Assembly: GCA_036504855.1 (NCBI GenBank)
Contig: DASXUL010000075.1
Location: forward strand, 12,655-76,654
Length of the DNA stretch: 64,000 nucleotides
Source of the DNA: Armatimonadota bacterium
GTDB taxonomy: Bacteria; Armatimonadota; DTGP01; JAKQQT01
Direction: 5' to 3'
Shown here: in pieces, positions 7,624-42,075 of the stretch
How positions within the stretch are numbered: the stretch's first letter is position 1
Layout of the letters: each line of letters opens with the position of its first letter
The notes under the pieces: generated by a model
Databases searched by the model: none
What the model was told of the DNA's origin: nothing
What the model saw: the letters and a program-made list of their open reading frames with translations, nothing else
Translations under genes and position numbers: made by a program

Positions 7624-7639
7624 ATGTACCTCAATCTGA

Positions 7640-7745
7640 AGTCATCAGTCGTCAGTAATCAGTATTCAGTCGGAAGGAATGCACGTCAGGATGCTGCCCT
7701 CACGGGCCAGGCCCATTGCTGATGACTGATCACTGACGACTGTGG
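7640..7745. repeat. CAGTC/GACTG stop-rich inverted-repeat element (family copy a)
   Basis: Left arm gtcatcagtcgtcagtaatcagtattcagtc; right arm gctgatgactgatcactgacgactg in inverted orientation around a ~45-nt core. It sits in an intergenic gap inside the Ubl operon. Confidence 0.6.
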
Positions 7746-34831: not shown

Positions 34832-35026
34832 TGTGAGTTCCCCCTAGACGGTTGAGGCGCCGAGCTTACGCGACTCTGGAATGCCCCCAGCCCGGCTTGC
34901 CATCCAGTCTAGCGACCGCTCCGGCGGGCCGCACAGCGCGCGGCGATGGCTCCGCGTTCTCACCTCGCCCCGCGCTAGACTGTTCCTATTGCGCGACCAA
35001 TGGGCCGCGCCAAAGGAGCATACGAC

Positions 35027-36763
35027 ATGCGAATGAGCCATCACTTCGGGGAGACGTTGCGGGCGGCGCCGGGCGATGCGGATGTGGTTGGACATCAACT
35101 ATTGCTGCGGGCCGGCTACATCCGCCCGCTGGCGGCCGGCATCTTCAGCTACCTGCCGCTGGGCCTGCGCGCCATGCGCAACATCGAGGCGATCATCCGC
35201 CAGGAGATCGAGGCCATCGGCGGGCAGGAAGTCTCCATGCCGGTGGTCCACCCGGCCGAGGTCTGGCGGGAAACGGGACGCTGGCAGGAGATCGGCGAGG
35301 AGATGGCGCGATTCAAGGACCGCGCCGGCCGCGACATGGCGCTGGCGATGACCCACGAAGAAGTGGTGGCCGACCTCGTTCGTCGCGAGGTTCACTCGTA
35401 CCGGCAGCTCCCCATGCTGATCTACCAGATACAGACGAAGTTCCGCGACGAGCGACGGCCCCGCGCCGGCCTGATCCGGGTGCGCGAGTTCACGATGAAG
35501 GACTCCTATAGCCTGGATGCGGACGATGAGGGGCTGGCGACGCAGTACGCGCGGCACCTGGAAGCCTACCATCGCATCTTCCAGCGAGTGGGCCTGCCGA
35601 ACGTCATCGCCGTTTGCTCCGACACCGGGATGATGGGCGGCAAGATCGCCCACGAGTTCATGTACCTCACGGAGATCGGGGAAGATACCCTGGCGCTGTG
35701 CGATGCCTGCGGCGCTTCCGCGAACCTTCAGGTGGCGTCTTTCCGCAAGCCCGCCGCCGTCCCCGAGGCGCTCCGGCCGTTGGAGAAGGTGGCCACGCCG
35801 GGAACGACCAGCATCGAGTCGCTGGCCGCCTTCCTGGGCGTGCCCGCCGAACGGACCGCCAAGGCCGTGTTCTTCACCGCCAGCCTGCCGGACCCGGAAC
35901 CCAAGGCGGCCGGCGCATCGCGCGACGCGCTGCTGATGGCGCTGGTTCGCGGCGACATGGACGTTAACGAAACGAAGCTCGCCAACGCGTCCGGCGCGCG
36001 CTCCTTGCGGCCCGCCACGGAGGCGGAGATCCGGGCAGCCGGCGCCGTTCCGGGCTACGCCTCCCCCATCGGCATGGACCGCGCCAACGCCATAGTCGTC
36101 ATCGACGATCTCGTGGCCGCCTCTCCGAACCTCGTCTCCGGCGCCAACGAGGAGGGGTTCCACTACCTGAACGTGAACGCCGGCCGCGACTATGCGCCGG
36201 ACGCAACGGCGGACATCGCCTCGGCCTGGGAGGGCGCGCCCTGCCTGGAGTGCGGCGCGCCGTTGCGCCTGGTCCGCGGCGTGGAGGTGGGCAACATCTT
36301 CCAGTTGGGCACGCGCTACACCGAGGCCATGGGCGCCACTTTCCTGGATGCGGAAGGCCAGGCGCGTCCGGTGGTGATGGGCTCCTACGGCATCGGCATC
36401 GGCCGCCTGCTGGCCTGCCTCGCCGAGGCGCATCACGACGACCGCGGCCTCACCCTGCCCGCCGCCGTGGCCCCCCACTCCGTTCACCTCGTGCGGTTGT
36501 GCGACAAGGACCCGCAGGTGGAGGCCGCCGCCGAGGAGTTGTACGCCGCCCTCATCGAAGCGGGCGTTGATGCGCTCTACGATGACCGCGACGCCATGGC
36601 CGGTGTGAAGTTCGCGGACGCCGACCTGATCGGCATCCCTCTGCGCGTCACCGTCAGCGCCCGCGCGCTGAAGGCCGGCGGCGCCGAACTGAAGCGCCGC
36701 GCCGAAACGGAAACCCGCATCGTGCCGCTGAATGAGGTGATGGAAGTCGTCAGTCGTCAGTGA
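35027..36763 (+). CDS. proS: prolyl-tRNA synthetase (bacterial type with editing domain)
   Basis: Collinear with bacterial ProRS (MRMSHHFGETLR...HQLLLRAGYIR...FADADLIGIP). The last 5 codons (VVSRQ*) are supplied by a CAGTC repeat element. Confidence 0.85.
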   Translation: MRMSHHFGETLRAAPGDADVVGHQLLLRAGYIRPLAAGIFSYLPLGLRAMRNIEAIIRQEIEAIGGQEVSMPVVHPAEVWRETGRWQEIGEEMARFKDRAGRDMALAMTHEEVVADLVRREVHSYRQLPMLIYQIQTKFRDERRPRAGLIRVREFTMKDSYSLDADDEGLATQYARHLEAYHRIFQRVGLPNVIAVCSDTGMMGGKIAHEFMYLTEIGEDTLALCDACGASANLQVASFRKPAAVPEALRPLEKVATPGTTSIESLAAFLGVPAERTAKAVFFTASLPDPEPKAAGASRDALLMALVRGDMDVNETKLANASGARSLRPATEAEIRAAGAVPGYASPIGMDRANAIVVIDDLVAASPNLVSGANEEGFHYLNVNAGRDYAPDATADIASAWEGAPCLECGAPLRLVRGVEVGNIFQLGTRYTEAMGATFLDAEGQARPVVMGSYGIGIGRLLACLAEAHHDDRGLTLPAAVAPHSVHLVRLCDKDPQVEAAAEELYAALIEAGVDALYDDRDAMAGVKFADADLIGIPLRVTVSARALKAGGAELKRRAETETRIVPLNEVMEVVSRQ

Positions 36764-36820
36764 TCAGTCATCAGTCCGGAGGGCGACCGCAAGGGTATGC
36801 CTTCCGGACTGATGATCTAG
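36746..36820. repeat. CAGTC/GACTG stop-rich repeat element (family copy b) overlapping the proS stop; left edge of the lower-GC island
   Basis: gtcgtcagtcgtcagtgatcagtcatcagtccgga-gggcgaccgcaagggtatgcc-ttccggactgatgatc. Confidence 0.6.
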
Positions 36821-37216
36821 GTCTCAGCCTCAAGACAGCGCCGCCTAGACGAGCGCAGGAGATGGAGGGCGTTCCTGGCTGTGCTGAACGAAAGGGCTAC
36901 GCTGATGTTTGCGTCGCGTAGTTTGGAGCGCGTGGGCGTTGGCCCCTAACGCGCCCCATGCTTACCACGGCCCAGACCTACCCGGGCTACAGGGCTTTCG
37001 CAACGAGCTCCGCGACTTTGGGAAGGGGCGGCATGGGCGAAACTGCGCTAGGATTGGAGAAGCGTTGATCATCCTTTTTGCTACGGAGCCACTGGCAGCG
37101 CCTACTCGGGGCAGAACCGCAGTTGGAAGCCGACATGCTGACGGGCACCCCAGCAGATTATGACACCGTCGACCGATAATCAGGCTTGTGGTACCTAGAT
37201 TTCGCAGGTACCTACG

Positions 37217-38416
37217 ATGTGCCAGACTGTGCCACAGAGCTATTCGCCGATACTTATGAGTACTACATTGAACCCTGCCATTGGACTCCTGAATTGGCAT
37301 CCGAGACAGACACTGGCCGAGATGACCGAAATCTACCTAGCGGATGAGCGTCCATGGATCATCGCATACAGTGGCGGCAAAGACTCCACAGCGGTAGTCC
37401 AGCTAGCGTATACGATGCTCTTTCGGTTGCCAGAACAATCCCGCACCAAGTCGATTTCCGTCATCAGCAATGATACCTTGGTCGAGGCACCCCCCGTCGC
37501 CGAGCACCTTCGCTCTTCCCTCGCCTCCATGGAGAGGGCCGCGATCAGGGACCAACTCCCTATTACCTTCGCCGTTACGACCCCAGAGCTCAAGAACCGA
37601 TTCTTTGTCAAGGTCATCGGTCGAGGGTACCCGGCGCCAAATCGCTATTTCCGCTGGTGCACCGACAAGATGAAGATTGGCCCGACCAGTGACTTTATCC
37701 GGCGCAAGATCAGTGAAGACGGCGAAGTCAATATACTTCTGGGGACCAGGCGCGCTGAGAGTTCTCAGAGGGCAAAGAGCATTGATAAGCACAAGGCACA
37801 GCATGGAATGGGTGCGCTGCGCGCCCACCCGAGTCTGGCAGGGGCTAAGGTGTACGCCCCGATTGAATCGTTGGAAACGGACGATGTATGGGCATACCTT
37901 CTAAGCTACCCGCCACCTTGGGACAAGCCGAATCGGGATCTCTGGGTCTTGTACGGGAAGGCCAGTGGGGTTGAGTGTCCAATCGTTCTCGACAAGACCT
38001 CTCAACCTTGTGGTGCAGGACGATTCGGGTGCTGGACGTGCACCGTAGTTCAAAAGGACAAGTCCCTTCAAGGTTTGGTTGACAATGGAGAGGAGACGCT
38101 CGAACCATTACTCGATTTCCGTGATTGGCTTAAGGGCTACCGTGATGACGTGAGTGTTCGCGAACCAACACGACGCAACGGGCGGCCAGGACCCGGACCG
38201 TTTACTCTTGCGGCACGGCAGACCATCTTGAACCGCCTAGTTCTGGCAGAACAGGAATCTGGGTTGATTCTACTGCACCCCGACGAACTAGAGGCAATCG
38301 CCGATCTATGGAGGGAAGATGGATTCGACGGCGAGATCTCGCCGAGCTCGCCACGCTATGGGGTTCCTAACGGAGGGCTAGAGGAGCGCAATCTACAGGA
38401 GGCTACCTACCGATGA
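37217..38416 (+). CDS. PP-loop ATP-pyrophosphatase, PAPS-reductase/DndC-like, with a C-terminal Cys cluster
   Basis: PP-loop 'IIAYSGGKDSTAV'. 'PCGAGRFGCWTCTVV' Cys motif as in DndC-type enzymes. Lower GC (~52%). Confidence 0.6.
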   Translation: MCQTVPQSYSPILMSTTLNPAIGLLNWHPRQTLAEMTEIYLADERPWIIAYSGGKDSTAVVQLAYTMLFRLPEQSRTKSISVISNDTLVEAPPVAEHLRSSLASMERAAIRDQLPITFAVTTPELKNRFFVKVIGRGYPAPNRYFRWCTDKMKIGPTSDFIRRKISEDGEVNILLGTRRAESSQRAKSIDKHKAQHGMGALRAHPSLAGAKVYAPIESLETDDVWAYLLSYPPPWDKPNRDLWVLYGKASGVECPIVLDKTSQPCGAGRFGCWTCTVVQKDKSLQGLVDNGEETLEPLLDFRDWLKGYRDDVSVREPTRRNGRPGPGPFTLAARQTILNRLVLAEQESGLILLHPDELEAIADLWREDGFDGEISPSSPRYGVPNGGLEERNLQEATYR

Positions 38417-38919
38417 CCGCAGATCAAGATTGTGACAGGCGAGACGGCTGGTTTGAATTTGGCCAGCAGCTTAAGTTGCGGGCAACGTGTCCATTCCATA
38501 GCCCTGCGGCAGTGTGGTATTTCCTATCAGTTATACTTGCGGTGAATGCCGTGTCAATCTGGCTATCGTACTCCTCACGGGGGACAGATGTGATTCCGTC
38601 GTCGATTCCCAGGCATATTGCCGTAACGGCGGTGGGGTTGCTTACGGCTGCAGCTGCGGACTTGGTTCTGGAGGCGGATTCGAAGACATCATTGCGAGCG
38701 TTCTGGACTGCCCTACTGATTTTTGGAGTCATCGCCATTGGATTTGCACACACGACCGGGTCCTGGTGGTCGTGGGGAGCAGCTGTTGGCGGTGTAACAA
38801 TCGCCTGCTTCATGTGGTGGTGCAGCACCGGAAACCGCCTGAATCTCCAGGACCGCGCAATCACGCCCCCTGGCGGTGATGGGCCACCCAGCGGAACAAC
38901 CGAAGGATACCAAGTATGA
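38413..38919 (+). CDS. small integral membrane protein (4 predicted TM helices), coupled between the DndC-like and DGQHR genes
   Basis: Overlapping start and stop codons on both sides. Hydrophobic helices. Confidence 0.5.
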   Translation: MTADQDCDRRDGWFEFGQQLKLRATCPFHSPAAVWYFLSVILAVNAVSIWLSYSSRGTDVIPSSIPRHIAVTAVGLLTAAAADLVLEADSKTSLRAFWTALLIFGVIAIGFAHTTGSWWSWGAAVGGVTIACFMWWCSTGNRLNLQDRAITPPGGDGPPSGTTEGYQV

Positions 38920-40229
38920 ACATCGAATCAGCGATATGCCCGTACCTGGCCCCAGCCATCCGGATCGAACAGCCATTGGGTGAGTTCTTTGTGGCGGCGA
39001 TTCCCGCCCGAGTGCTCCTTGCTACGGCGTTCACAAACTACTTTCGTATTCCTAAGAGGGATCCACAGATCGAAGCGTATCCGGCAATCGGGCTGCAGCG
39101 GGCAAAGAGTGATCATCGACTGCGGGAGTTGGAAAGATATATTCAGTCAGTGGATGCTGCCTTTCCGAATTCGATTATTCTCGCAGCGAACGAGGCGAGC
39201 AGTGGGCAGCCGCCAATCCAGGAGTCTGAGCAGTGGAGCATCGTTACTACTGGGAACGAGGGACTGGCACTGCGGATCCCGACGCTTCGCGAAGCTGCTA
39301 GCATTATCGACGGCCAGCACCGCTTAGAGGGGTTCCGAAATGTGCCTGAGGATCAAAAGGGCATGGCACTGCTCTGCGCAGTCTATTTCGACTTGCCTGT
39401 TGCTTACCAAGCATACGTCTTCGCCACGATCAACTTCAACCAGAAGAAAGTGGACCGAAGTCTCGCTTACGACCTATTCGGATATGCGATAGAGAACGAA
39501 CCTCCTAATGCGTGGACCCCGGACGTTCTGGCCGTCTACATAACTCGAAGGCTCAACATGGACCCCGAGTCTCCTCTCCATAGGCGTATCATTGTTGCAG
39601 CCAAGGACTCCGATGCCCTATTCTCGACTCCACTTGGAAAGGGTGAATGGCGCGTATCTACTGCCACAGTCGTAGACGGAGTTCTGAGGTTAGTGTCTGC
39701 ACACCCGTCTCTTGACCGCGATCGCATGCGAACGGCTCCGATCGCCAAGAGAAGCCGACAAATGTTGAGTGTCGACAGCGCACCATTCCGAAAAGCGTTT
39801 CTTGAGGGAAATGACATCCTGGTTTACCTCGCCACTGTCAATTTCCTCAATGCGCTTCAGCATATCGTCTGGGTGGATCAGCCGAGAGAGTCGTTTCTAT
39901 TCAAAACGGTCGGCATTCAGGCATCGTTCGAGCTCTTGGCCGAGTTGATTCCGCTTTGCCTAGCTAACTCGGACTTTCGCTATGATCTTTTCGCGCGGAT
40001 TCTGGAGGGTGTCGGGACCTGTGACTTCTCGCAGCCGTTCTTCCAGCAGTCGTCTTCGGTAGGTCGCATTCGGATATTGCAGTGCCTGCGCTATCTAGTA
40101 GGGCTCGTCGACATTAACGGCCTTCCAGAAAGGGACAACGAGCTGTATCGCGGCGCCCTGAAGAGTAGCCGTCAATCGACCTTTCAGATTCGTGAAAGCA
40201 ATCCCAACCAGGGAAGCTCTAGAGCATAG
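38916..40229 (+). CDS. DGQHR-domain protein (DndB-like family)
   Basis: An explicit 'IIDGQHRLEGF' motif. ~437 aa, matching DndB-family size. Confidence 0.65.
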   Translation: MNIESAICPYLAPAIRIEQPLGEFFVAAIPARVLLATAFTNYFRIPKRDPQIEAYPAIGLQRAKSDHRLRELERYIQSVDAAFPNSIILAANEASSGQPPIQESEQWSIVTTGNEGLALRIPTLREAASIIDGQHRLEGFRNVPEDQKGMALLCAVYFDLPVAYQAYVFATINFNQKKVDRSLAYDLFGYAIENEPPNAWTPDVLAVYITRRLNMDPESPLHRRIIVAAKDSDALFSTPLGKGEWRVSTATVVDGVLRLVSAHPSLDRDRMRTAPIAKRSRQMLSVDSAPFRKAFLEGNDILVYLATVNFLNALQHIVWVDQPRESFLFKTVGIQASFELLAELIPLCLANSDFRYDLFARILEGVGTCDFSQPFFQQSSSVGRIRILQCLRYLVGLVDINGLPERDNELYRGALKSSRQSTFQIRESNPNQGSSRA

Positions 40230-40253
40230 GCGTTCATAGATAGGAGACACGCT

Positions 40254-40955
40254 ATGAGACACACCGAAGCAGAGGAGGAAACTCATCGGTTCTATGAGAC
40301 CAGAGGATGCCACTGGTCGTCCACGAGATTGGCCGCGGATTACTGGGAACCGGAGCTTTGTCAGTTTCGCCAGTTATTGGCTTCTGGGAGCATCCTTGAC
40401 GCAGGTTGCGGAAACGGCCGCGATTACGACTTTTTCCGCCGGGTTGGCTATTCATACACCGGCATTGATGTCTCCAGCCAAATGCTTGCAATTGCCCGGG
40501 ACAACCATCCAGATGGCGCGTTTGCCAGCATGGATGTCTGTGATCTTGCGTTTGATTCGCTAGCATTCGATGGCATCTGGTGCGTTGCCGTTCTACTGCA
40601 TTTTCCTAAAGCTGTGGTTGATCGTCCTCTTCAGGAGTTGTGTCGCGTACTCCGAAAAGGCGGCGTTGTCTTTTTCGCGGTTCGTGACGGAAGCCGCGAG
40701 TACATGAGCGAGGAACAAGAAGGCACACAGAGATTCTTTGCCGAGTATTCGGTAGACGAGCTTTCGGACCGATTGTCTCAGAGTGGATTGACGCCGATCC
40801 ACGTTTGTACGCGGGATGCTCCAGGTGAAGATCAGGCTCGGTGGACCACCGCATTTGCGGTCAAGGGCGAAGTTGAGGGAAGCCATCAGGAGGTCATGGG
40901 TGGACACAAGAGTTCGCACCGTCACGATTCGATCATTCAACAAGTTTCATTCTGA
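40254..40955 (+). CDS. class I SAM-dependent methyltransferase
   Basis: Motif I 'ILDAGCGNGRD'. Motif post-I/II 'GIDVS', 'FDGIW'. Confidence 0.7.
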   Translation: MRHTEAEEETHRFYETRGCHWSSTRLAADYWEPELCQFRQLLASGSILDAGCGNGRDYDFFRRVGYSYTGIDVSSQMLAIARDNHPDGAFASMDVCDLAFDSLAFDGIWCVAVLLHFPKAVVDRPLQELCRVLRKGGVVFFAVRDGSREYMSEEQEGTQRFFAEYSVDELSDRLSQSGLTPIHVCTRDAPGEDQARWTTAFAVKGEVEGSHQEVMGGHKSSHRHDSIIQQVSF

Positions 40956-41616
40956 GGTATCCAGTCATCAAGACGAGTGGTCGAATTGGTGCTACAGAGG
41001 CAGCAACAGCGGCAAACATCATCTCGTGCCGAAGTCCGGTAGAGATCCATTCGCGCCAGATGATGTGGATACGGATAAGAAGATGTTTGAGCGGTGGAAG
41101 CAACTCGCCGTTGCCGACATACCAACCCATGCGAGAGATGACTGGGATCTCCTTGCTATCGCTCAGCATCATGGCCTCGCCACAAGACTCCTAGACTGGA
41201 CTTATAACGCACTAATAGCGGCCTTCTTTGCGGTTGTAGACTCGCGTAGCCTCTCTGTCCCTAACGAGGATTGCGTTGTGTGGGCCCATTATACGAAGGA
41301 GACTGTTGACCCACAGAAGGAAGAGCCGTTTGGTGTTACCGGGTACAAGCGCCTTCGGCCGAAGGGGGTGGTGCCTAGGGTGGTTCGTCAGGGCGGATAC
41401 TTCACGATACACAATCCTCCGTCAACCGCTCTGGAGGACAAACTGAATCCGGAGGACAAGCTTGTAAGGATGATCATCAAGGGCTCGTATCGTTCTACAC
41501 TTGCTATTGAGTTGTCTCACTATGGCGTTAACTCAATGAGTCTGTTCCCGGATCTTGATGGCCTAGCAAGGCATTTGAATTGGGTCTTCACGAGCATGCC
41601 TTCAGAATCGGCCTAG
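40816..41616 (+). CDS. FRG-domain protein (start uncertain; no canonical start downstream of the MTase stop)
   Basis: 'WSNWCYRGSNSGKHHLVP' resembles the FRG-domain core (W..FRGQ...L.P). The ORF overlaps the MTase 3' end by ~140 nt as drawn. Confidence 0.4.
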   Translation: MLQVKIRLGGPPHLRSRAKLREAIRRSWVDTRVRTVTIRSFNKFHSEVSSHQDEWSNWCYRGSNSGKHHLVPKSGRDPFAPDDVDTDKKMFERWKQLAVADIPTHARDDWDLLAIAQHHGLATRLLDWTYNALIAAFFAVVDSRSLSVPNEDCVVWAHYTKETVDPQKEEPFGVTGYKRLRPKGVVPRVVRQGGYFTIHNPPSTALEDKLNPEDKLVRMIIKGSYRSTLAIELSHYGVNSMSLFPDLDGLARHLNWVFTSMPSESA

Positions 41617-41694
41617 TGGACGCGCATTAGGAATCCCAAGGCACGCGGAAGTGAGCAGAATGGTGCCACGAGCGCTCATTGAATAAGGTGTCCA

Positions 41695-41901
41695 ATGGTA
41701 TCGTACAAGGAAATCCAGAGATGGGTTCGGGAGGAGTATGGGTTCGTCCCGAAGTCGTGTTGGATAGCTCATGGGAAGGAGTTGAGCGGAATTCCGACGC
41801 GGGTCGCTATGAACCGAAAGGGTGAACGGGCTTTCCCATGCCCTTCAGGTAAACTCGCTGCAATCGTTGCAGGATTCAAGCACTTTGGTCTCATTCGGTA
41901 G
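41695..41901 (+). CDS. small hypothetical protein (68 aa)
   Basis: ATG-initiated ORF with low-GC codon usage like the rest of the island. No recognisable motif. Confidence 0.3.
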   Translation: MVSYKEIQRWVREEYGFVPKSCWIAHGKELSGIPTRVAMNRKGERAFPCPSGKLAAIVAGFKHFGLIR

Positions 41902-41907
41902 GCGCTG

Positions 41908-41938
41908 TAGGCCGACCTGATCGGCATCGCGTTGCGCG
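41908..41938. repeat. 31-nt near-identical (28/31) direct copy of an internal proS segment (36617-36647, codons ADLIGIPLRV), at the right island boundary
   Basis: gccgacctgatcggcatcgcgttgcgcgtca versus proS gccgacctgatcggcatccctctgcgcgtca. Confidence 0.6.
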
Positions 41939-42075
41939 TCAGTCATCAGTCATCAGTCAGGCGACCTTGGCCTCATCGGGAGGCAATCTCATGGAGCAAG
42001 GCCTCCGGACTGACAACTGACAACTGACAACTGATGACTGACGACTGATCACTGATCGCTGACGGCTGACAGCTG
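41937..42075. repeat. CAGTC/GACTG stop-rich repeat element (family copy c), abutting the PHP gene stop
   Basis: agtcatcagtcatcagtcag-gcgacc...cctccggactg-acaactgacaactgacaactgatgactgacgactgatcactgatcgctgacggctgacagctg. Confidence 0.6.

Follow-up and report, generated by a model that had tools for sequence, protein, structure and literature searches.

How could a DndC-type enzyme serve in DNA modification or defence at a locus that has neither DndD nor DndE? This question is raised by a 64,000-nucleotide stretch of DNA from an Armatimonadota bacterium (assembly GCA_036504855.1, contig DASXUL010000075.1, positions 12,655 to 76,654 of the forward strand; the whole stretch is here called the window), in which an island of lower GC content behind proS encodes a DndC-type PP-loop protein, a membrane protein, a DGQHR-domain protein, an S-adenosylmethionine (SAM)-dependent methyltransferase, and an FRG-domain protein. 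To our knowledge, phosphorothioation is the sole known enzymatic modification of the DNA backbone. The current models that we know of have DndC depend on a DndD-DndE scanning core, and we know of a 2025 report on the Tdp system as the first exception. We conclude with considerable confidence that the island combines a DndC-DGQHR module that lacks DndD and DndE with an FRG-methyltransferase pair that is associated with Dnd systems. A first-pass annotation, made from the sequence, had proposed a non-canonical modification or defence module; our analysis supports that proposal and refines it by dividing the module into two units. The first unit comprises three genes (coordinates here and below are positions in the window):

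37217-38416, + strand: DndC-type PP-loop / Fe-S sulfurtransferase; open reading frame (ORF) of 399 amino acids, or 382 amino acids from the NCBI start at 37268.
38413-38919, + strand: membrane protein of 168 amino acids with about four hydrophobic helices; ATGA overlap with the genes on both sides.
38916-40229, + strand: DGQHR protein of 437 amino acids with a ParB/sulfiredoxin-fold NTPase-like N-domain and an all-helical C-half; contains IIDGQHRLEG.

The PP-loop protein proves to be a DndC homolog, as the first-pass annotation had suspected. It carries the PP-loop SGGKDS and the motif CGAGRFGCWTCT, and scores 370-417 bits overall with DndC models, including TIGR03183 (374.5 bits, cutoff 290.4) and the PADLOC DndC model (406 bits). 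The same protein reaches 35 bits with the SspD model, 32 bits with BrxP, and 33.7 bits with the Pfam PAPS_reduct domain. Because the DndC scores dwarf these values, it is not a CysH, Ssp, or BREX enzyme, and a role in CysH-type sulfate assimilation is ruled out. The PP-loop and all Cys, Arg, and Trp residues conserved in at least 97% of 175 DndCs are retained. PDB sequence searches with the DndC, both as a single sequence and as a clade profile, returned no meaningful match. The window proteins are divergent (45-57% identity to their closest relatives); the nearest relatives of the DndC are 53-58% identical, followed by a gap down to 51% or less. Residues 33-311 also match a PADLOC model for a "Type II methyltransferase" (PDLC03333; 279 bits, profile positions 31-319 of 544). 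From this alignment, the model evidently includes a DndC-like domain and could lead to mis-annotation.

Neither DndD nor DndE was found near this gene. Four DndD/ABC queries gave no tblastn match in the island or the window at E ≤ 1. Canonical DndE and three DndE-fusion queries gave no match in the window, and no Pfam DndE domain is present in the island proteins. A cysteine desulfurase or DndA-type gene was likewise not detected in the window at E ≤ 1. The claim that DndA, DndD, and DndE are absent from the island thus stands. This absence of DndD and DndE characterises an entire DndC clade and does not reflect a local deletion. We built a neighbor-joining tree (100 bootstraps) of 175 DndCs, comprising 36 near-group sequences and 139 other DndCs from the loci analysed. 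The 36 (the window DndC, P0002-P0024, L001-4, L019, L048, and L168-173) are monophyletic (bootstrap 100/100). DndD or DndE occurs in none of the nine distinct loci of this clade, and no member has DndD within 4 kb. For the 139 locus DndCs outside the clade, a DndD-like gene lies within 4 kb in 124 cases and the flank is too short in 14, which leaves a single one (L129) without it. Comparison DndCs from metagenomes (80 sequences with 42-49% identity to the window DndC, among the matches listed) lie nearly all directly 5' of DndD. Furthermore, the Sp-DndD domain (PF20306), which elsewhere accompanies or is fused to DndD-linked DndCs, is absent from all clade members. Three positions have switched to basic residues in the clade: K126 (D/E in the remaining DndCs), R128 (T/S), and K132 (N). 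No plasmid DndC falls within the identity range of the clade (best, 48.6%).

Members of the clade are found with several sets of partners. In L019, L048, and L169/170, the DndC is accompanied by a membrane protein and a window-type DGQHR protein. In L001, L002-4, and L168, it is accompanied by a soluble protein of 176-180 amino acids with GIY-YIG-like motifs and by a DndB-like DGQHR protein (PADLOC DndB, 81 bits), which is 24% identical to the window DGQHR protein. The motifs of the small soluble protein read GVYTF...YVG...R..F.EY, and its match to Pfam GIY_YIG_2 (E 0.008) is below threshold. Three loci of this type (L001:7081-10895, L002:7172-10946, and L168) represent a four-gene variant with an extra conserved protein of 220-232 amino acids that has a hydrophobic N-terminus and no library match. 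The pair of GIY-YIG-like small protein and DGQHR protein is also seen inside two full dnd loci, L101 and L141.

Two loci of the clade, L171 and L173, have no DGQHR partner. L171 (1874-6345) carries a basal clade DndC (P0023) beside a HerA-like ATPase of 699 amino acids (PDB 7f6d, HerA, E 4e-39) and an unannotated protein of 445 amino acids, for which a PDB search gave no match; its surroundings are mobile-element-like (recombinase, S24 peptidase). This ATPase and the 445-amino-acid protein presumably resemble TdpA and TdpB, although the ATPase matches a chain named HerA (7f6d), not TdpA. Judged by gene content, L171 may be a Tdp-like locus. L173 (350-6554) encodes an SMI1_KNR4-cysteine desulfurase fusion (625 amino acids), a DndC, a GHKL ATPase (HATPase_c_3, 543 amino acids), and a PF28273 protein (380 amino acids), and is a further architecture without DndD and DndE.

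The DGQHR cassettes found with clade DndCs come from at least three lineages: that of the window, that of L019/L048/L169/L170, and that of the L001-type small protein with DndB-like DGQHR protein. This recurrence points to a functional link between DndC and DGQHR, and argues against an accident that was inherited once or a deletion at one locus. The small partner of the DGQHR protein is interchangeable: one type of cassette has a protein with four transmembrane helices (4-TM), and the other has one that bears GIY-YIG-like motifs. We had expected a single DGQHR clade for all minimal modules, and this was not seen: the DGQHR proteins of L019/L048/L169/L170 form a clade (100/100), and the window protein stays outside, joining it in 1/100 bootstraps.

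Within the first unit, dndC, the membrane gene, and the DGQHR gene are coupled by ATGA stop/start overlaps; the overlaps in L019 and L048 are 19-49 nucleotides long. Three helices of the membrane protein pass a strict hydropathy scan, and the fourth was judged by eye. The protein has no Pfam, NCBIfam, PADLOC, or PHROG match, and is homologous to small proteins of L005 and L007 (BLASTP E 3e-7 and 4e-14) that precede the same type of DGQHR gene.

The DGQHR protein scores 156 bits with TIGR03187 (cutoff 58.85) and 394.6 bits over the full length of TIGR04172, its best model, which is under the cutoff of 450, and is 40-46% identical to TIGR04172 family members. By these scores it is a close relative of TIGR04172 and not a member by NCBI's rule. 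Matches to DpdB reach 63.3 bits (NF041060, cutoff 300) and 62.5 bits (PADLOC). The Pfam DndB match (30.6 bits, cutoff 29.1) covers the N-terminal half only, and the gene lies 3' of dndC behind the membrane gene, whereas the DndB regulator is encoded 5' of dndC. The AlphaFold model (predicted local distance difference test, pLDDT, 84; predicted template modelling score, pTM, 0.71) has an N-terminal ParB/sulfiredoxin-type domain and a helical C-half, with no nuclease fold in the C-half and no fused DUF1524/HNH nuclease domain. QR, DGQHR, and N..Q motifs are invariant in 30 DGQHR relatives; a PDB sequence search with the DGQHR profile gave no meaningful match. The protein is thus of the DndB/DpdB superfamily, with a ParB fold, and is apparently not DndB proper; the first-pass label "DndB-like" holds at the level of the superfamily.

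We find that the membrane protein and DGQHR protein form a cassette that recurs as an accessory to full Dnd systems and is in part independent of them in its location. When a single genome per species was scanned, 80 DGQHR loci from many phyla emerged, and other searches brought the number of loci with this DGQHR type to 90. In 75 of the 90, the DGQHR start coincides with the end of a membrane ORF (three or more segments, median 180 amino acids). A DndD-like ABC ATPase lies in the flank in 73, five are minimal (DndC, then the cassette), and 12 have no DndC or DndD nearby; in these 12 the cassette stands away from any dnd gene, like unlinked restriction modules. The usual order is dndC, dndD (PbeC/DndD-like), a DndE-HerA/DUF87 fusion, the small membrane protein, and DGQHR, often with a cysteine desulfurase nearby. 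At least 10 of the 58 full loci that have the cassette also carry a canonical DndB gene beside dndC, and the cassette is therefore not a substitute for DndB. TIGR04172 itself was defined by ProPhylo as a DGQHR family confined to genomes that bear DndD (PMC3226654). In four loci (L005:5825-7381, L007:9330-10877, L174:2728-4341, and L177:1387-2865), DndE is fused to a HerA/FtsK-type (DUF87/AAA_10) ATPase of ~490-540 amino acids; free DndE of ~125 amino acids is uncommon in loci with the cassette or the FRG pair.

The second unit of the island is a pair of overlapping genes:

40254-40955, + strand: SAM-dependent methyltransferase, class I, 233 amino acids, small-molecule type; motif ILDAGCGNGRD.
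40900-41616, + strand: FRG-domain protein with an ADP-ribosyltransferase (ART) fold; 238 amino acids from GTG 40900; ribosome-binding site AGGAGG at 40888-40893; the ORF opens at 40816.

The methyltransferase matches Methyltransf_11/25 at ~69 bits and TehB weakly, and reaches no NCBIfam equivalog. The most likely start of the FRG gene, as read from the sequence, is GTG 40900, which gives a homolog-like length and has AGGAGG upstream. The FRG protein scores 76.9 bits with Pfam FRG. In the PADLOC search that the first-pass annotation had named as a check, it matches the PDC-S15 model PDLC04938 (231 bits, E 3e-69, profile positions 36-271 of 276), in line with the view of FRG as a domain of defence islands. 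A PDB sequence search with the FRG protein gave no meaningful match. Its ART fold agrees with the published assignment of the Frg clade, which was predicted to be part of the ART superfamily, with a possible role as an NADase effector (PMC9503650).

In three close FRG homologs (49-50% identity), FRG and methyltransferase are fused in one protein, and the methyltransferase half of one of them (P0253) is 30% identical to the window enzyme over 143 amino acids (E 1e-19). A reading of the window pair as a frameshifted fusion was rejected, because the known fusions have the opposite order of domains. The methyltransferase adjoins the FRG gene, in either order, in the window, in L174/175, in L177, and on the P0251 contig. 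A dnd-family gene is nearby in all five close contexts of this FRG subfamily (5/5), and DndD, DndE, or DndA is found in none of 76 distant FRG loci. Besides the window, the contexts are:

P0251 contig: dndB-dndC ~2 kb from the FRG pair.
L174/175: FRG pair directly 3' of an ABC-ATPase/DndE-fusion pair, facing a dndC-A-D-E operon.
L177: FRG pair ~3 kb from a cassette of DndE fusion, 186-amino-acid protein, and DGQHR protein, plus a cysteine desulfurase.
L176: DndB-like fragment at the contig end.

In this small sample, Dnd systems seem to have the methyltransferase-FRG pair as a rare and specific companion. Our initial view of the two genes as unrelated cargo, taken from their absence in the anchored loci (0/166), was dropped after the FRG-anchored contexts. 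The first-pass annotation had seen the pair as standing in place of DndA, DndD, and DndE. Both genes are present, but they do not act as a replacement: they are a conserved pair or fusion of their own that occurs with several kinds of dnd locus. FRG relatives from plasmids and viruses are distant (39% identity or less) and served as a control set only. In one of these (L178, positions 74448-81926 of Shewanella baltica pS18501), the FRG gene (39% identity) lies directly 5' of a type I restriction-modification operon on a conjugative plasmid, with no such methyltransferase; this arrangement fits FRG as a general defence-island gene.

Both units lie in one island of ~5.3 kb behind proS, with six co-directional genes on the + strand. 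The first-pass annotation had counted five; the shared strand is confirmed, and the number becomes six with a 68-amino-acid ORF. In sliding 500-nucleotide windows, the GC content is 0.52-0.60 across ~36750-41999 and 0.65-0.72 in the flanks on either side, which reproduces the drop first noted between ~36830 and ~41900. The remaining features of the island and its borders are:

35000-36763, + strand: proS, complete class II prolyl-tRNA synthetase (class II core, editing, and anticodon domains).
36620-36650, no strand: left copy of a 31-nucleotide direct repeat, within the proS 3' end, coding for ADLIGIPLRV; left island edge, with the GC drop beginning just 3'.
36745-36815, + strand: heptamer array (AGTCATC x4.6) and hairpin spanning the proS stop codon; 17-nucleotide arms at 36768-36784 and 36799-36815; includes the left copy of a 25-nucleotide repeat at 36755-36779.
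41695-41901, + strand: small conserved ORF of 68 amino acids, the last gene of the island; phrog_27283 match.
41911-41961, no strand: right copies of the 31-nucleotide (41911-41941) and 25-nucleotide (41937-41961) repeats; right island edge, with GC back above 0.65 just 3'.
42008-42075, - strand: inverted heptamer array (units of the ACTGACA type) with pairing to both 41937-41957 and the left array; recurrent host hairpin element.

Repeat search and alignment show the two copies of the 31-nucleotide repeat to be identical at 28/31 positions, and those of the 25-nucleotide repeat, the left one across the proS stop codon, at 23/25. By a rough estimate, well below 1e-5 chance matches of the 31-nucleotide kind are expected in 5.6 kb. 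Both repeat pairs coincide with the GC transitions, and the right copy repeats the proS 3' end in shortened, diverged form. Such a duplicated end at the GC transitions is the footprint that an element inserted at a gene's 3' end would be expected to leave, and the GC drop together with the flanking repeats indicates a foreign origin of the island. No integrase or mobility gene is present in the island, and a tRNA scan, an Rfam search, and a promoter/terminator scan detected nothing. We propose that the island would be a horizontally acquired defence islet of ~5.3 kb, integrated at the proS 3' end, whose two units would be co-transcribed.

The heptamer array and hairpin at 36745-36815 are probably the proS terminator. 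Heptamer arrays of the AGTCATC or ACTGACA type are seen at 36745-36776, 41939-41959, 42008-42075, and 7639-7735, where they form long hairpins that are intergenic or cross the proS stop codon, and the 12-mer CAGTCATCAGTC (at most one mismatch) occurs nine times against 0.21 expected. The element near 7.6 kb marks it as a host repeat, and by its form the hairpin looks like a host repetitive extragenic palindromic (REP)-like or terminator element. The 68-amino-acid ORF (MVSYKEIQRWVREEYGFVPKSCW...) matches phrog_27283 over its full length (E 1.9e-13) and has no Pfam or PADLOC match. Its family is widespread, comprises 413 representative clusters at E ≤ 1e-3, with a typical size of ~69 amino acids, and includes phage members.

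How might such an island work? The analysis shows which genes are present, their folds and linkage, the structure of the clade, and the borders of the island; from these we infer the biochemical steps. The first unit is translationally coupled dndC, 4-TM gene, and DGQHR gene, and its DndC lineage would do without the ABC ATPase DndD, without DndE, and without the Sp-DndD adaptor. By analogy with TdpC, this DndC would adenylate and sulfurate the DNA backbone alone, using sulfur from a housekeeping cysteine desulfurase. The DGQHR protein may be an NTPase switch that reads the phosphorothioate (PT) state of DNA, as do the DGQQR domains of SspE and DndI. It would then gate the 4-TM protein, an effector that would damage the membrane or cause abortive infection and so fill the role that the nuclease domain has in SspE or DndI; in the sister cassette, it would gate the GIY-YIG-like protein instead. 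The FRG-methyltransferase pair would most likely be a back-up effector that consumes NAD+ or ADP-ribosylates, and an accessory of dnd loci. The chain as a whole (the clade DndC writes PT alone, the DGQHR protein reads, the membrane protein acts, and the FRG-methyltransferase is accessory) seems to us tenable, though slightly more apt to fail than to hold. A bolder version is doubtful: a three-gene "write-read-kill" PT immunity, with an autonomous PT synthase DndC, a PT-sensing DGQHR NTPase, and abortive infection through a 4-TM effector of a type not described so far, joined by FRG and a TPMT/TehB-like methyltransferase as a previously unrecognised Dnd companion acting on the mark or on NAD+. 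It is speculation that the pair might S-methylate the PT sulfur or ADP-ribosylate unmarked DNA.

Several points weigh against this proposal. Autonomous PT writing by the clade DndC is something that we infer from sequence, and the relationship of this DndC to TdpC is drawn by analogy. The effector role of the membrane protein is conjecture, because the protein is without a known homolog, and the GIY-YIG call for its alternative partner is under the Pfam threshold. The FRG gene is absent from the 166 DndC- or DGQHR-anchored loci, and its link to dnd genes comes from just five contexts. DndD/CxC-ATPase and DndE are held to be the indispensable Dnd core, without which modification is non-functional (Rakesh, Aravind, and Krishnan; PMC10853773). 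The 73 of 90 cassettes in loci with a DndD-like gene, together with the definition of TIGR04172-type proteins as limited to genomes with DndD, suggest that the cassette may need a canonical system. The window is 64 kb of a metagenome-assembled genome, and dndD, dndE, or iscS could lie elsewhere in that genome. An ordinary Dnd system split over the genome, with canonical DndCDE, its dndD, dndE, and desulfurase genes outside the window, and the cassette as a DndB-like regulator of the level of modification, would account for these observations. It would also agree with the fact that dndA is often unlinked and can be substituted by IscS (PMC10853773), and that DndB, itself a DGQHR protein, represses dnd expression (PMC4507180; PMC10853773). 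We nonetheless think it unlikely. Outside the clade, 124 of the 125 loci with enough flank have dndC next to dndD, versus none of the nine distinct clade loci, and the clade is monophyletic and devoid of Sp-DndD, a clade-wide change that scattered operon splitting does not predict. Furthermore, canonical DndB already stands alongside the cassette in the full loci mentioned above, and a membrane partner is unexpected for a transcriptional repressor.

Two other accounts were weighed. DpdB works with DpdA in the 7-deazaguanine Dpd system as the ATPase partner that loads or activates it on nucleic acid. A DGQHR ATPase that loads or activates DndC in the same way could replace DndD and DndE in a two-enzyme modification module without restriction, whose product would be PT or another thio-modification of DNA or RNA. 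The matches to the DpdB models, the repeated recruitment of DGQHR partners by DndCs without DndD, and the translational coupling of the genes all speak for such a module, as does the fact that PP-loop/Fe-S enzymes thiolate RNA too (PMC12914056). The cassette, however, occurs mostly with DndD and DndE systems and in 12 of 90 loci without DndC nearby, and is thus no general substitute for DndD/E; the DndCs of L171 and L173, with their HerA-like and GHKL ATPases, do without a DGQHR partner, the DpdB score is far under its cutoff, and the membrane protein stays unexplained. We regard this account as improbable. More improbable still by a wide margin is a decaying remnant, in which a full dnd operon lost dndD and dndE by deletion and is now non-functional cargo. 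The lack of a mobility gene, the truncated right proS duplicate, and the divergence of the window proteins would suit it; against it, all six ORFs are intact, the conserved DndC and DGQHR residues are all kept, the compact DndC-membrane protein-DGQHR order with overlaps recurs in L019, L048, and L169/170, and the DndC belongs to a dedicated clade and not among DndD-linked sequences.

Taken singly, each gene of the island can be annotated, and the two main ones already bear the names DndC and "DGQHR protein 1" at NCBI and JGI. The DndC clade without DndD/E, its repeated pairing with DGQHR proteins, and the FRG-methyltransferase as a companion of Dnd were not found in the searchable literature or in PADLOC models; a 2024 reappraisal of Dnd neighbourhoods leaves FRG unmentioned. 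Dedicated screens missed the clade because they were anchored on DndD/E or required a P-loop NTPase neighbour. If TdpC belongs to the same clade, the DndC part would have been known since 2025, and the novelty would narrow to the set of partners. The clade is monophyletic and widely scattered, and would offer a compact three-gene system (~3 kb) for testing the minimal machinery of PT writing. The same system would bear on whether DndB-like ParB NTPases repress, load, or sense. The PDC-S15/FRG defence candidate gains a context, as an ART-fold protein with a methyltransferase and a link to dnd genes. If the proposal is true, a one-enzyme PT writer would be useful for making nuclease-resistant DNA in vivo.

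Comparison with known systems places the island between several of them. The Tdp system (TdpABC), reportedly described by An et al. in Nat Chem Biol in 2025, is said to include a hexameric translocase (TdpA) and a nuclease (TdpB). To make PT, this system is stated to require "only a single gene, tdpC" (PMC12914056), and the island shares with it a single DndC-family gene without DndD/E. The partners differ, being a membrane protein and a ParB-fold DGQHR protein instead of an ATPase/translocase or nuclease: the island proteins contain no ATPase or nuclease domain, and the window has no HerA-like match; within the clade, L171 alone has a HerA-like neighbour. BREX type 4 (BrxP-BrxC-BrxZ-BrxL) and SspABCD are set apart by the low SspD and BrxP scores of the window enzyme beside its DndC score, and by the absence of BrxC/Z/L and SspB/C from the island. 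In BREX type 4, BrxP and BrxC make PT, so that PAPS-reductase-type writers do work with non-Dnd partners (PMC12914056). The screen of dndC neighbourhoods in that study required a P-loop NTPase neighbour (PMC12914056) and would therefore miss an arrangement without DndD/E.

Dpd (DpdA-DpdB-DpdC), which inserts 7-deazaguanine in DNA, resembles the island in having a DpdB-like DGQHR gene beside a nucleic-acid-modifying enzyme. There is no DpdA transglycosylase/TGT-like gene or DpdC here, the modifying enzyme is a PP-loop sulfurtransferase, and the DpdB match is at 63.3 bits against 300. SspE and DndI are DUF262 (ParB-like, DGQQR) NTPases fused to HNH; PT-DNA stimulates their NTPase, and DndI becomes toxic when PT is missing (PMC13251355, PMC11662687). 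They share with the window protein a ParB-superfamily sensor fold with a DGQ(Q/H)R motif and a genomic link to a PT-writing enzyme (a putative one in the window), and differ in their fused DUF1524/HNH nuclease domain. The FRG protein is like PDC-S15 and the Frg ART clade in its full-length model match and ART fold. PDC-S15, however, is defined as a single gene, whereas in the FRG subfamily of the window every close homolog examined has a class I SAM methyltransferase as neighbour or fusion partner, beside dnd genes; distant FRG genes have neither this pairing nor the dnd link.

The nearest comparison is Dnd itself (DndABCDE, with DndFGH, DndI, or PbeABCD restriction). The island lacks the DndD/CxC ABC ATPase, DndE, Sp-DndD, and DndA, and its DGQHR protein is apparently not DndB proper. 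It shares with Dnd a clear DndC homolog and, as in DndB, a ParB-fold DGQHR protein. Furthermore, the cassette of membrane protein and DGQHR protein and the FRG-methyltransferase pair both occur in canonical dnd loci elsewhere.

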